Assembly: GCA_963677595.1 (NCBI GenBank)
Contig: OY782041.1
Span: 2,272,001-2,336,000 of the forward strand
From: Spirochaetia bacterium
Lineage (GTDB): Bacteria > Spirochaetota > Spirochaetia > CAKZLE01
Direction: 5' to 3'
DNA: 64,000 bases
Shown here: one piece after another, positions 4,091 through 9,312 of the stretch
Numbering within the stretch: position 1 is the stretch's first letter
How the letters are laid out: each line of letters begins with the position of its first letter
Notes under the pieces: model-generated
What the model was told of the DNA's origin: nothing
The model's input: only the letters and a program-made list of their open reading frames with translations
Databases searched by the model: none
Program-made: the position numbers and the translations under genes

Positions 4091-4882
4091 ATGGGTTTGG
4101 GTGAGAAAGGACTCTCTGTGAGTGTTATCCAGCTGGGACCAGAATTTGGATGTAAGCAGAAAAATCTTGAAAAATCATCTCACTTGATCCGAAGCGCGGC
4201 TGCTGAAGGTGCAAAATTGATGGTGTTGCCAGAATTATGCAGCACTGGTTATGTATTCCAGAATAAGACTGAGTTGTATGATCTTGCTGAACCTGTACCC
4301 AATGGTCCATCGGTACTATTTTGGGAGAATCTATCATCTGAATTGGATTGTTACATAATTGCCGGAATCGCCGAATTGGATGCTGATGGTATTCGAGTAT
4401 TCAACAGTGTTGTGCTAATTGGCCCAAACGGTTACATCGGGCGGTATAGGAAACTGCATCTATGGGGGGAAGAGAAGCTTTATTTTGAGCCGGGAAATGA
4501 AGGACTGCCTGTATTTTATACTCCCTATTGCAGAATTGGCATGCTGATCTGTTATGATATGTGGTTCCCGGAAGCGTTCCGACTTCTTGCACTTCAGGGT
4601 GTGGACGTTATTTGCTGCTCCTCCAATTGGATTGATCATAGTCCTGCTGAGCCAAGCACTATGGGAGTTGTCCATGCAATGGCAGGCGCAAGTTCCAACA
4701 AAGTATTTGTTGCCGTTTCAAATCGTGTCGGGGCAGAGCGTGGCGCTTTGTTTGCCGGTAATTCCCTAGTGACAGGAACTAATGGAAGGATGTTGGCTGG
4801 CCCAATGAACAATTCCGTAGAAGGCTTTATCACCCAGGAACTTGATATAAAACAATCCCGTGAAATCAAACCTGGTATGTAA
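4091..4882 (+). pseudogene. Carbon-nitrogen hydrolase (nitrilase superfamily amidohydrolase), C-terminally truncated by IS66 insertion
   Basis: Catalytic triad motifs LPE, YRKLHL and ICYD. The reading frame runs into the IS end at 4879, which creates a stop. The missing tail is in frame at 9313-9432. Confidence 0.85.
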
Positions 4883-5026
4883 CTACTCAGGTCCTCGGCT
4901 CTAATAGGTCTGAGCAGGCCTGATTCAGCTACCCCAAAGTTGCAATATTTCTTGTATATATAACGAATTACTGTTGTAATTAAACGCCCAAAATGCCTAT
5001 GACCACAAATAACAGTTGGATTCAGG

Positions 5027-6748
5027 TCAAGCAGACTTTCGAAAGAGCTTGAGGAGCCGTTTTGGCAACCCAGGGTCCTTCACCAATTTCTTGATCTTGG
5101 GATGCACGGTCTGAACCGATTCAGATTCAACCGCCAGCATCTTCCTGATCTTTGCTACATCAATCTGTGCGAACCGCTCTTCCAAACTGGACGCTCCACC
5201 ACATATCAGGTTCAGGTAATCCTGACTGCCAAGATTCCGAACCAATGGTGTTGCTGAGAGCATTGCGGACAGTGTTTTCGTCATGCCGGCATGCCCGCTT
5301 GTTCGGCAATACCCATGCTTTAAGCCTCTAAAAAATTGTTCACAGGAATTATTCGTACGCTGGGGGTAGATCATATAAGTCTCTCCCTGTCGAGTGATGG
5401 GTATCGGAGCCGTGAAGAGCTTCTCCCAATACTTCTCTAACTGCAGCCTCATCTTCAACAACCTGTTCCCCTGCAGACTGTCATCCTTGCACAGTTGCAC
5501 CAGAAACTGTTCCACCTGCTCTTTGATGGTATCGATCTCCCCACTTCCGGGATCATTCAATCCCAACTTGCCGCCGGGTTCCGCAATCCTCATAGCACAT
5601 CGGAGTCGGTCAAAGACCACTACCTTCTTCTGTAGGGATTCATACGCAGTACTAATCTCCCCATCGTACCATACCGGTCTCAATACCGCCAGCACGTCTC
5701 CAGCAAATGAGGACCGTGTATCCAGCTTCATCAGGCGCAGGGTCCTTCTCAGCTCATACAGCCGATTCAGGAAGGATAGGTAGGCCTGGTCAAAGGGGAA
5801 CCCGTACCCATCTCCTACGTTCTTACCGGCGAGTGCCCATTCGATGAGGGTGTACAGGTATGTTTCCTCGGAGTAGGGACTGCCTCCTTTCGGTACCGAT
5901 CTCACATCTGTACTGAAGGCTTCCATGTCCACCAAAGCTCCTGCCTGCGTGGTACGAATCTTTCTCAAGATCGCTCTCAGCTTTGTCTGAATGCCATGAC
6001 AGCGGAATCTACGCCGCAGCCGGTCATGCTCACTCGACAACAGGTCTTTTCCGATGTCCCGGAGGAAGTGAAAATGACAGATATAATCAGGGACATCGGG
6101 AAAAACCTGTGCCACCGCACTGAGTATGCCTGCTCCCATGTCATGTACCAGGGCTGCCGGTTCTCCATAGGCTCGCTTCAACCCATTCAGGAAGGGGATG
6201 ATAGCATCACGCTTTTCGGAGGGGATCTTTACCGAGTTCAGGACGATTGATGAGATCTCATCAAGCCCTACGAACAGATGGGGGCTCTCCCCATCACACG
6301 TCCCGTCAAGATGAAGGATGTATCCTCCTTGATCTTCCAGATGCAGTCGCAGCACCTCACTGCTCTCCCGGTGTGCTACAGCAAGATACCCGATGTATTT
6401 CTTTGTGAGCAGCGCGATCTCACTGGTACTGATGCGGATCCCTCGTGCTTCCAGATGCTCCTGTATCTCTGCCTGACTCCGGCATGCCCGAAAGACGGCT
6501 TCACCGATATAGGTGATCACATCATAGGCAAAGCGGTGCCGTGGCGGGACAAGGGTGCCCAGTTCCGCTGATCCACTGGTATGTCCGCAGTTCGGACAAA
6601 TCAGGATCGTCTCACAAGCCGAGATCGGTCCGATAGCATACAGGACGACGGTTCGCTTTCGTGTCTTCTGCACCTGCATCGTATGCTGACAGCAGGGACA
6701 GGCAGCATCATCCTGCCGGAAGACTACCACCGGAGGTTCTCTGAACAC
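5027..6748 (-). CDS. DDE transposase OrfB of nested IS (Zn-ribbon plus MULE-like DDE); frame open upstream to the A9 run at 6830
   Basis: CPCC and CPNC Zn-finger pairs, then HLDGT (D1), VHDMG (D2), ICHFH (CxxH) and RTNNSCEQFF (E). Lies between the IRs. Confidence 0.88.
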   Translation of the reverse strand: MFREPPVVVFRQDDAACPCCQHTMQVQKTRKRTVVLYAIGPISACETILICPNCGHTSGSAELGTLVPPRHRFAYDVITYIGEAVFRACRSQAEIQEHLEARGIRISTSEIALLTKKYIGYLAVAHRESSEVLRLHLEDQGGYILHLDGTCDGESPHLFVGLDEISSIVLNSVKIPSEKRDAIIPFLNGLKRAYGEPAALVHDMGAGILSAVAQVFPDVPDYICHFHFLRDIGKDLLSSEHDRLRRRFRCHGIQTKLRAILRKIRTTQAGALVDMEAFSTDVRSVPKGGSPYSEETYLYTLIEWALAGKNVGDGYGFPFDQAYLSFLNRLYELRRTLRLMKLDTRSSFAGDVLAVLRPVWYDGEISTAYESLQKKVVVFDRLRCAMRIAEPGGKLGLNDPGSGEIDTIKEQVEQFLVQLCKDDSLQGNRLLKMRLQLEKYWEKLFTAPIPITRQGETYMIYPQRTNNSCEQFFRGLKHGYCRTSGHAGMTKTLSAMLSATPLVRNLGSQDYLNLICGGASSLEERFAQIDVAKIRKMLAVESESVQTVHPKIKKLVKDPGLPKRLLKLFRKSA

Positions 6749-6801
6749 CTGTCGATTCTCAAGCGCATGCTGAACACGCTTCCGGTGATAGATAAACGCC
6801 T

Positions 6802-7464
6802 TTAGGAATCCAGCTGATCCGTTTTTTTTTCCAACAGCCCATGGAACTGCAGTAAGGCCGTGATCTTCCCGGTATCAACCGAGATGCCCTGCCGCTGCAG
6901 ACGGTTCACCCGGTTCTCTAATGCGGTCTCCGGATGCTTGATGAAGTCTGCGAACACCAGGACCGCATCATGATCAGAGATCTTCTGCAATGATGCCTGC
7001 GCTGCTGATGCTTCCCGATTCTCCTGCTGCCTTGCACCGATCTGCTCATCATCACTCAGATACACATACCGGCCGTCAAGTTTCTTTCTTTTCAGCTCGG
7101 GAAGCGCTTTATAATGACTCATGAACGATCGCGGCTCCAAGCCAAGCAGCGTCCCAAGCTCTGCAGAGCTCAACCCTTGCGGAGCATCATTGACCAGGTG
7201 AACGACCGTCTCTTTCAACGTGCCAAACCGGGAAAACCGTATCCCCTTATACTCCCAGAGTCCGTGTTCATCGAACGTCGGGACATCCGGCAGGACATAA
7301 TAGCGCCCGTTGTTATTGTAACTTGTCACGGCACCCCACTGCTTCAGGTACTTCCGGACTGCCGGAACCGAACACTGCAGCAAGGATCTCAACTGTTCGA
7401 TGGTCATCGTCTTCCGTCTGCGAAATGTCTGCATGACCTCATGTTTCAATTCCTGCGGGATCAT
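6802..7464 (-). CDS. OrfA of nested IS, putative HTH DNA-binding protein (220 aa)
   Basis: ATG at 7464 with AGGAGG RBS. HTH-like segments MTIEQLRSLLQCSVPAVRKYL and LSSAELGTLLG. Lies inside the IRs and ends just after the A9 run. Confidence 0.75.
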   Translation of the reverse strand: MIPQELKHEVMQTFRRRKTMTIEQLRSLLQCSVPAVRKYLKQWGAVTSYNNNGRYYVLPDVPTFDEHGLWEYKGIRFSRFGTLKETVVHLVNDAPQGLSSAELGTLLGLEPRSFMSHYKALPELKRKKLDGRYVYLSDDEQIGARQQENREASAAQASLQKISDHDAVLVFADFIKHPETALENRVNRLQRQGISVDTGKITALLQFHGLLEKKTDQLDS

Positions 7465-7475
7465 ACCAGCCTCCT

Positions 7476-7522
7476 GTATTAAGTATATGTTTATAGAATA
7501 CATTATAGCATATACTTAATAC
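7476..7522 (-). promoter_or_regulatory. orfA promoter: extended -10 (TGCTATAAT) enclosed by a 14-bp inverted repeat (putative operator)
   Basis: GTATTAAGTATATG (7476-7489) and CATATACTTAATAC (7509-7522). Minus-strand TATAAT at 7502-7507. Confidence 0.65.
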
Positions 7523-7734
7523 TTTAACCAACCGTTTCTACGGCGTAGTTTCATACTACCCTGCATTTACGGTGCTGTGAAGGAGGTTTTCTTCGATGTC
7601 ATGATTTCATATACTTGATATTTCTGTCTCGCTAAGTCGGTATGTTCTTTTCGCTTCGGTAGTTGCTCTGTTCCAACTGTTATTTGTGGTCATAGCAAAA
7701 TGCTATACTAATTCCTATAAGAGAAAGGAATTAT

Positions 7735-9285
7735 ATGGCATCGAAAGGCTCCAGGAAACAGACTCAAGACACGAAGCAGGTTCCTCAACAAGGGGGTCCT
7801 TCTACGTCTTTGGAGCAGTTGGTTTCCAAGCTTTCAGATCAGATTACTGATCAGGGATCTCTTATCAAGGAACTCACTGCTACAATCAAAGACCTCAAGC
7901 AGATCATTGTTTCCAAAGATGAACGGCTCGCTCAACAGGATGCTGAGATTGCCGCGTTGAAAGAGAAACTGAACAAGAACAGCGGCAACAGTAACAAGCC
8001 GCCAAGTTCTGACTTTTTCACCAAGCCCAAGCCTTCATCGATCAATCGGGGGAAGAAACGGAAGAAGTCTTCTGGTGGTCAGCAGGGGCATACTGGATCT
8101 ACCATGAAGCTCAAGGAAACGCCTGATGTCATCCATCAGTGTCTTCCTGTTGCCTGTAGCGGCTGTGAATACTCTCATACCTGCGAAAGCTCCGTAGTGG
8201 AATCACGCCAGGTGGTGGACATCGTCATCAGGAGCGAACAGAGCCGGTACGATCGGGTTCAACGAAACTGCCCGAAAAGCGGGACCACCCTGACCGGAGC
8301 ATTCCCGGAGGGCGTGCATGCTCCCCAGCAATATGGGAGTAACCTGAAGGCGATGGTAGTCTCCCTCTCCTCATTCGGGATGGTCAGTGCATCACGTATC
8401 AGCGAGATCGTGCATGGACTCACCGGACTGCACATCAGTGATGGGACGGTATGCAACATCATCGCTGACTGTGCCAAACGCTGCACTGAATTACTCCCGG
8501 AATTGCGGGAGCGGGTGAGACGCTCTGCGGTTGCGCATTTCGATGAAACAGGGATTAGGTTCAATTCCAAGATGTATTGGGCGCATACCGCATCCACTGA
8601 GCTGATCACCCTGATACATGCACACCCAAAACGAGGTGTTGAAGGGGTCCTGGCTGGAGGAGTGCTCGAGGAGTTTCCCGGCGTGGCCGTCCATGACTGC
8701 TGGGGATCCTATCTCAAGAAGACGTTTGACGGGGTCACCCATGCTCTATGTGGAGCGCATATTGATCGGGAACTTGAAGGTATCATCCAGAACACGCGAC
8801 AACGCTGGGCGAAATCGTTCAAACGGTTACTTCGTGACATGTATGAGGAGAAGCAACGATTATTGGCTCAAGGTTGTGATCGTGCATCACCTGAGGTGAT
8901 TGCTTCATTCATCAAGAGGTATGAGGAGATTCTTGCAAGAGGATTCTCACGGAACCCCTACCCGAAAGCGAAAAAGAATAAACGGGGAAGACCGAAGAAA
9001 GGGAAGGTCCTGAGTTTTTTGGAACGACTGGGGGCCCTAGTAGACAGTGTCTTGAGATTCTTCACCGACTTCCGAGTGCCGTTCTCCAACAACATCGGTG
9101 AGCGCAGCTTCAGGTTAAGCAAATTGAAGATGAAAGTAGCAGGGACCTTCCGGTCTGAATCTGGTGGCTCTAATTTCTGTACGATCTTCTCGATCATTGA
9201 TACGGTCAGGAAGAATGGCGGAAACCCTTATGAAGCCCTCTCTGCGATATTCACCAACTCATTCTCTCTGTCATTTCTCGACTAA
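7735..9285 (+). CDS. tnpC: IS66-family transposase TnpC
   Basis: N-terminal coiled coil, NSGNSNKPPSSD, GGQQGH, Cys-rich Zn region, HFDETG, VHDCW, HALCGAH and FSNNIGERSFR motifs. Confidence 0.95.
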   Translation: MASKGSRKQTQDTKQVPQQGGPSTSLEQLVSKLSDQITDQGSLIKELTATIKDLKQIIVSKDERLAQQDAEIAALKEKLNKNSGNSNKPPSSDFFTKPKPSSINRGKKRKKSSGGQQGHTGSTMKLKETPDVIHQCLPVACSGCEYSHTCESSVVESRQVVDIVIRSEQSRYDRVQRNCPKSGTTLTGAFPEGVHAPQQYGSNLKAMVVSLSSFGMVSASRISEIVHGLTGLHISDGTVCNIIADCAKRCTELLPELRERVRRSAVAHFDETGIRFNSKMYWAHTASTELITLIHAHPKRGVEGVLAGGVLEEFPGVAVHDCWGSYLKKTFDGVTHALCGAHIDRELEGIIQNTRQRWAKSFKRLLRDMYEEKQRLLAQGCDRASPEVIASFIKRYEEILARGFSRNPYPKAKKNKRGRPKKGKVLSFLERLGALVDSVLRFFTDFRVPFSNNIGERSFRLSKLKMKVAGTFRSESGGSNFCTIFSIIDTVRKNGGNPYEALSAIFTNSFSLSFLD

Positions 9286-9312
9286 TTCTGGGTTGAGGAC
9301 CTGAGTAGTTAC

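Follow-up and report, generated by a model that had tools for sequence, protein, structure and literature searches.

An insertion sequence with two reading frames

A 2,699-bp insertion sequence (IS) lies on the minus strand of a 64,000-nucleotide (nt) stretch of a Spirochaetia bacterium genome (assembly GCA_963677595.1, contig OY782041.1, positions 2,272,001 to 2,336,000), which is referred to here as the window. The element carries orfA, encoding a predicted tandem winged-helix protein of 220 amino acids (aa), followed in the -1 frame by orfB, which encodes a Mutator-like DDE transposase core. The two open reading frames (ORFs) meet at a run of nine adenines (Table 1). A sequence-only reading of the window had proposed an unassigned IS that makes its transposase by a -1 frameshift of the IS1/IS3 type. 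Here, the element was compared with its homologues, and the results suggest that RNA polymerase probably slips on the A-run and that the element has named kin.

The 24-bp inverted ends are 100% complementary and flanked by an 8-bp target duplication. The source genome (4.33 Mb, one contig) contains a second copy (G000:C1:2181089-2185863) with a different 8-bp duplication, which is identical to the window copy over element positions 1-1720, A9 included, and whose orfB is broken by a 2,060-bp IS. As the sequence-only reading had held, the element is a real IS; it has also been mobile recently.

The junction was re-derived as first described. The A9 is the sole A/T run of at least 7 in the element, and orfA stops six sense codons past its last Lys codon. 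The -1 frame after the run reads NGSAGFLKAFIYHRKRVQHALENRQ, then VFREPP, and the predicted OrfA-OrfB fusion, counted from the ATG of orfA, has 812 aa.

Table 1. Features of the insertion sequence (positions within the window)
Feature	Position	Strand	Remarks
Whole IS	4997..7695	-	2,699 bp; 24-bp inverted ends and 8-bp target duplication
Left terminal inverted repeat	7672..7695	-	24 bp; first bases CTAT
Right terminal inverted repeat	4997..5020	-	24 bp
Target duplication, left copy	7696..7703	.	8 bp
Target duplication, right copy	4989..4996	.	8 bp
Third operator half-site	7606..7619	-	upstream; 3/14 mismatches
Predicted operator, left arm	7509..7522	-	ends in the TG of the extended -10 box
Predicted extended -10 box	7502..7510	-	TG-n-TATAAT; predicted from the sequence
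Predicted operator, right arm	7476..7489	-	ends immediately before the ribosome-binding site
Ribosome-binding site of orfA	7470..7475	-	AGGAGG
orfA	6802..7464	-	220 aa, ATG 7464 to stop 6802; predicted tandem winged-helix protein with helical C-terminal part
A9 run, predicted slippage site	6822..6830	-	G AAA AAA AA.., read GAA AAA AAA ACG
orfB	5027..6826	-	599 codons, read in the -1 frame from the run onwards; a linker helix and a zinc ribbon, then an HTH (helix-turn-helix)-like region and a DDE core of RNase H-like type that carries a large helical insert
Zinc-ribbon cysteines	6587..6700	-	C43, C46, C77 (invariant), C80 (nearly invariant)
Predicted catalytic residues	5339..6307	-	D174 (6307), D229 (6142), CxxH 250-253 (6079-6068), E496 (5341); invariant in 22 aligned homologues

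Conservation of the A-run and variation of its phase

Loci were taken from GTDB contigs (67), from the best 80 of 559 metagenome matches and from genome searches, a set that leans to close kin. After exclusion of 11 loci (short relatives, duplicates from the same genome and two weak hits), 160 were examined, of which 135 have a junction (98 non-redundant at 85%), 23 lack the end of orfA and two lack an adjacent orfB start. The run is A8 at 96 junctions, A9 at 29, A10 at seven and A7 at two, and is missing at one. Thus, a run of A8 or longer (A8+) is found at 132 of the 135 junctions and at 95 of the 98 non-redundant ones; elsewhere in orfB of the same elements only 12 such runs occur in 146.5 kb. 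With open frames checked, 121 junctions are -1, 11 are +1 and three are in frame. The expectation of a conserved run therefore held up, whereas that of a fixed -1 phase did not. Three loci considered as in-frame or +1 cases (L026, L047, L055) are -1 junctions with a later break and were reclassified.

No conserved start of orfB was found among 28 homologues, in agreement with the lack of a convincing ribosome-binding site for orfB in the window copy, while the distance from the run to the zinc ribbon, where intact, is steady at 41-46 codons. The linker, from the orfA stop to codon 26 of the shifted frame, has a pooled ratio of nonsynonymous to synonymous substitution rates (dN/dS) of 0.29 (369 codons, 20 pairs). 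Natural in-frame fusions occur in L165, which lacks the run, and in L159/L162 and P0067, both joined at the position of the run. Furthermore, all six copies in one assembly (L017, L021-L023, L025, L037) have an A8/-1 junction and separate 8-bp duplications. Since the run is conserved, orfB lacks a conserved start, the linker is constrained, natural fusions exist and out-of-frame copies spread, these sequence comparisons together show selection for the A-run and suggest that the functional transposase is the fusion.

Slippage of RNA polymerase or of the ribosome

Because 11 of the junctions are +1 and three are in frame, slippage of RNA polymerase is favoured over the ribosomal -1 shift of IS1 and IS3 that the sequence-only reading had taken as its model. 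Mixed shift direction is given as a criterion for transcriptional realignment in section 10 of PMC3711429, and the orthologues studied here combine it with a conserved A8+ run, the pattern of programmed transcriptional realignment. The A-run of IS1447 is reported to undergo transcriptional slippage in both directions (PMC6211511), realignment is common in IS clusters (PMC4066793), and transcriptional slippage has been proposed for Nostoc IS copies that differ only by A8-A10 (PMC1088944, section 7).

The +1 members are scattered on a tree made by a quick method, from which L039, L055 and L168 were left out and on which the nearest relatives of the window element are Spirochaetota. Nine changes of phase were counted, at least seven of them forced on well-supported branches; an order of events is not claimed. 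Six of the ten non-redundant +1 members have intact frames (L090, L114, L123, L138, L140, L163). Two pairs share their +1 junction, and their orfB is under purifying selection (L114/L148, dN/dS 0.165 at a synonymous divergence, dS, of 0.72; L138/L140, dN/dS 0.176 at dS 0.57); the orfA value of L138/L140 was saturated and not used.

An IS3-type ribosomal -1 site consists of A_AAA_AAG with an upstream Shine-Dalgarno (SD) sequence and/or a downstream stem-loop. In the group studied here, A_AAA_AAG is carried by just five of the 86 non-redundant -1 members, SD-like pairing upstream of the run was no better than in control windows (p 0.87, n=82), and folding downstream of it had a mean z of about 0 (n=86). 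As neither kind of ribosomal stimulator was detected, slippage during transcription is the more probable mechanism. Moreover, A_AAA_AAA is extended by an eighth A in 81 of the 82 non-redundant -1 members that carry it, compared to 40 of 110 cases of AAA_AAA elsewhere in orfB. These observations, together with the selection on the +1 pairs, make an IS1/IS3-type ribosomal -1 shift on A_AAA_AAA, with +1 members that are dead or use another route, unlikely, though by no means negligible. In favour of such a shift, the -1 phase and an in-frame A_AAA_AAA, a motif listed among the ribosomal ones in PMC3711429, occur together at 86 of the 98 non-redundant junctions, A_AAA_AAG is present in five, and the 60 nt past the run in the window fold at -12.5 kcal/mol (a single sequence, without z-score).

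Several points weigh against polymerase slippage. A8 lies at the low end of known slippage runs, for which selection is seen mostly at nine according to PMC1088944. The -1 phase dominates and every A8+ run holds an in-frame A_AAA_AAA, so that ribosomal shifting may contribute in -1 members, including the window element. The eighth A could partly reflect a protein constraint, as Asn follows the lysines in most fusions. Furthermore, the frame is broken or short in four of the ten non-redundant +1 members (L049, L078, L112, L154), and an 8-bp duplication was seen in none of the ten; part of the +1 class may consist of dead copies or of errors made in assembling a homopolymer. On balance, the pattern of junctions suggests that the fusion is probably made by polymerase slippage at the run, and slippage of polymerase and ribosome may both act in -1 members.

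Two other explanations do without programmed slippage. The run might be a switch at the level of DNA, where replication slippage occasionally yields an in-frame copy that provides transposase for itself and in trans. L155 (A7, -1) and L159/L162 (A8, in frame), which are 98-99% identical in OrfB, would fit such a switch, as would the variable run length among Nostoc plasmid copies of a short relative (see below). However, both copies in the source genome are A9, the six separately inserted copies mentioned above are all A8/-1, and in-frame junctions make up just 3 of 135, which renders a DNA-level switch improbable. It is more improbable still that orfA and orfB are separate genes, with OrfB started on its own and the run merely reflecting a conserved Lys-Lys end of OrfA. 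Short relatives do transpose with an OrfB-like protein alone, and candidate start codons exist in the linker of most members, among them GTG33 of the window with an anti-SD pairing of -8.5. These candidates differ in place, though, and their pairing is weak; GTG33 would omit the conserved residues F28 and P32. Lys-Lys elsewhere is written AAA_AAA in just 110 of 313 cases, and both the purifying selection on the linker and the natural fusions argue against separate genes.

An assembly error at A9 that masks a single ORF, for which nothing speaks beyond the general weakness of homopolymers, is ruled out for practical purposes by the A9 of the second copy, by Logan contigs of run X1 without indel (the sole public run with the element, which may be the source sample and hence not independent) and by 132 of 135 homologues being out of frame.

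OrfA and its predicted operator

The HTH-like nature of OrfA in the sequence-only reading was supported by a structure model (pLDDT, the model's per-residue confidence, 89.8) in which two winged-helix units are followed by a helical tail. Its fold matches are multi-winged-helix proteins and ArsR/MarR-type repressors with generic scores. The window OrfA matched no Pfam family at E below 0.045, and its matches in the Atlas are unnamed clusters only.

The two operator arms form a perfect 14-bp inverted repeat flanking the TG-n-TATAAT. The AGGAGG and the repeat around the extended -10 box had been noticed before, and the repeat proved to be conserved: directly before the ribosome-binding site, 71 of 84 homologues have an inverted repeat, about 44-52 bp in span, in which 12 or more out of 18 pairs are symmetric, a level reached by none of 84 coding controls. 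The arm sequences vary between lineages. TGnTAnnnT occurs within the repeat span in 48 of the 84 homologues, where 8.6 are expected by shuffling. The orfA promoter escaped a scan with the sigma-70 consensus, whose only hit was at 7581-7553, and no terminator was found. By eye, the arms do not resemble the terminal repeats. Of 20 homologues examined, six have the third half-site on the same strand, 145-161 nt before the start, and in L005 this copy is exact. Because of this additional half-site in some members and the -10 box between the arms, a DNA operator is favoured over an RNA hairpin. An operator-like arm is also present, inverted, near the right end of L030.

From this arrangement we infer that OrfA binds the inverted repeat, and the unshifted winged-helix protein likely represses the promoter of its own element. 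The generic character of the fold matches (best Z 7.4) speaks against this assignment, and among 324 arm pairs G-T mismatches (10) outnumber A-C mismatches (5), which weakly allows for a role of the repeat in RNA.

Long proteins containing OrfA were found neither by a single query nor, with two exceptions, by profile (P0121, P0122), in weak searches that missed fusions found otherwise. P0121 and P0122 resemble broken distant relatives, in which OrfA ends in GKK and is followed by a divergent OrfB-like region; they suggest further subgroups.

The catalytic core of OrfB

The proposed Mutator-like core of OrfB was substantiated by the invariant D, D, CxxH and E, the last within an RTNNxxE496 motif that is invariant in the 22-member alignment. 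An AlphaFold model (pLDDT 78.9) gave ISCth4 as the top Foldseek match (E 1e-6), followed by Hermes, both with low TM-scores (0.22/0.30 for ISCth4). The window OrfB reached no Pfam or NCBIfam family at cut-off, including those for IS256, ISH6 and IS1249 (16.9 bits for NF033543, where 150 are required). All 22 aligned members weakly match MULE and NF033543 (IS256), with a best member at E 2.3e-10. Membership in IS256, ISH6, ISL3 or IS6 was rejected, with scores far under the cut-offs. IS66 elements have GTAA ends. With its CTAT ends, 19 bits against the NF033517 cut-off of 180 and no match to PF03050, the element was not assigned to IS66.

As given in PMC3942029, the groups p-MULT1-5 are IS256, ISH6, ISLre2 and ISKra4/ISAzba1/ISMich2, and p-MULT traits are a DDE core with helical insert, C/DxxH, a terminal C, repeats of 18-39 bp, duplications of 8-9 bp and circles with a 6-10-bp spacer. 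The studied IS shows the invariant D, D and E, set in an RNase H-like core that carries a helical insert, the invariant C250-H253, the terminal C, and repeats and duplications of the corresponding length. In contrast, its CxxH lies 21 aa after the second D (D2) and its D2-E span is 267 aa, whereas section 13 of PMC3942029 gives 11-19 aa and inserts of 99-138 aa; it also falls short of the family profile cut-offs and has an additional winged-helix OrfA. By motifs and model, OrfB is predicted to work like a Mutator transposase with spacings outside those given for p-MULT1-5.

Kinship with IS892-type ISNCY elements

A plasmid search for relatives returned 30 records, all partial and below 60% identity; the best were from Microvirga, Rhodovastum, Deinococcus and Nostoc PCC 7120. 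Among them are short relatives on plasmid alpha of Nostoc PCC 7120 (L068), in Rhodovastum (L069, annotated 'ISNCY family transposase') and in Deinococcus (L071). L068 corresponds to IS892 in its features and is presumably that element; IS892 does occur in Nostoc PCC 7120 according to PMC4369082. The short elements share with the studied IS the CTA(G/T) ends with similar first 13 bases (L071 starts CTATGAC), the same zinc ribbon, D..D, a CxxH 21 residues past the second D and RTNNxxE; L068 also has perfect 24-bp repeats and an 8-bp duplication. A profile of OrfB matched all nine short loci with 75-104 bits and left a neighbouring IS66 protein unmatched at domain E 0.01, while the OrfA profile matched none of the nine.

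Differences are equally clear. Short elements measure 1.66-1.68 kb, compared to 2.68-2.90 kb in the long group, and lack orfA; their gene breaks, if any, lie within the catalytic gene. Identity is 27% over 255 aa, with separate long branches on the tree, and the D2-to-E distance is about 220 rather than 267. Because OrfB corresponds to the entire short transposase, orfA and its promoter appear as an added module of about 1 kb. Rather than being unassigned, the studied element is, as judged by ends, 8-bp duplication and catalytic motifs, tied to IS892-type ISNCY elements as its nearest named kin, and the distinctive trait of the long group is the extra 1-kb orfA-plus-operator module.

As in the long group, A-run length varies between copies of a short element: of eight Nostoc plasmid copies (L176-L183, NC_003276.1), six have A10 and two A9 at position 852, and one has A7 in place of A8 at position 136, near the start. 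The seven copies with flanks examined each have their own 8-bp duplication. L069 (2411), L071 (2455), L173 (1577) and L174 (1552) carry an A4-6 G5-7 motif within the insertion domain, where the frame changes in L069 and L071. The OrfB profile also matches L171 and L175, which form a more remote subgroup from cyanobacteria; their gene is in two pieces, annotated as hypothetical proteins.

Mobility and genomic context

Both ends were located in 51 homologues, which are 2,678-2,899 bp long, and all 102 of these ends start with CTAT (CTA was demanded by the search, the fourth T was free). A target duplication, each time of 8 bp, flanks 9 of 43 homologues with flanks, and the other 34 are probably collapsed metagenome copies. 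On one contig (L102) the right end is followed, after 8 bp, by a left end with the operator and the start of orfA, an end-to-end junction resembling the circle junctions described for Mutator-type elements. As evidence for a circle it is weakened by being a single case among 188 loci that could be a tandem dimer.

In the window, the IS sits inside the leader of a one-ORF IS66-family element (4879-9312), itself with an 8-bp duplication, whose ORF (7735-9285) scores 248 bits with NF033517. The left end of that element cuts a nitrilase-like ORF (4091-4882) at its end and provides its stop. The 2,060-bp IS occurs in the genome at G000:C1:2182819-2184878 and 3303245-3305304 and encodes a 587-aa ORF; a GCTGAG-like sequence adjoins both copies and hints at a target preference.

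Proposed mechanism and known recoded elements

The most probable reading of these comparisons is that the long, orfA-bearing kin of IS892-type ISNCY elements have their Mutator-type DDE gene divided at a conserved run of A8-A10, where RNA polymerase slips so that a minority of transcripts would encode the predicted active OrfA-OrfB. Transcripts made without slippage would yield the 220-aa winged-helix OrfA; by binding to the inverted repeat that surrounds the -10 box, this protein would act as a repressor of its own promoter. In the window copy, one extra A in the transcript (A10) would produce the 812-aa fusion, and in +1 relatives the loss of one A or the gain of two. The fusion, as the predicted active transposase, would move the element via a circle with abutted ends, leaving 8-bp duplications.

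In IS1 and IS3, OrfA/OrfAB control is exerted by frameshift, with the upstream DNA-binding OrfA in excess. The studied IS is similar in its upstream, presumably DNA-binding OrfA and in a fusion made via a frame change. It differs from IS1, IS3 and IS1447 in its unrelated catalytic family, its tandem winged-helix OrfA and the lack of detectable IS3-type stimulators. With IS1447 it shares the A-run, which there serves transcriptional slippage (PMC6211511), and with the IS630 family the presence of -1 and +1 members within one family (PMC3711429, section 10); IS630 transposases belong to another family, for which the accessible part of that source describes no operator-bearing winged-helix OrfA. 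ISMich2, as described in section 11 of PMC3942029, likewise has two ORFs joined by a predicted -1 shift on a Mutator core.

Extent of the group and significance

The OrfB profile matches 4,116 of 7,996 scored protein clusters, distant kin included, and the 120 best of these are unnamed, 'hypothetical' or plain 'transposase'. The group was found in Spirochaetota, Thermodesulfobacteriota, Pseudomonadota, Bacteroidota, Verrucomicrobiota, Nitrospirota and others; no relative was found in viral contigs. One member (L028) lies on a contig of a Woesearchaeota metagenome-assembled genome that is barely longer than the element, so that its host is unsure. As the group is large, widely spread and unnamed, annotation pipelines miss it and miscall the start of orfB.

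The sequence-only reading was thus right in calling the group poorly described, while its claim of novelty for a Mutator core combined with recoding gives way to ISMich2 (PMC3942029). Recoded transposases, including those with a Mutator core and frameshift, are already known, and what appears to be new is the long, OrfA-bearing layout. No long IS892-like group with a winged-helix OrfA was found in the literature, in a search that left most subscription papers, supplements, ISfinder and TnPedia outside, so that a curated entry may exist; the accessible text of PMC10132070 does not mention the long group.

Overall, we tentatively suggest, as a possibility rather than the expected outcome, a widespread undescribed IS family, mostly of uncultured anaerobes, in which an IS892-like Mutator-type transposase captured a tandem winged-helix autorepressor with a co-evolving operator, the two being coupled by a phase-free transcriptional slip site that flipped repeatedly among -1, +1 and in-frame states. 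The principle of the recoded transposase is old, which caps the surprise. Junctions of the -1, +1 and fused kinds, all at one and the same run, form a natural series with which slippage of polymerase could be told apart from that of the ribosome, and the lineage-specific operators offer a system for the co-evolution of an autorepressor with its site.

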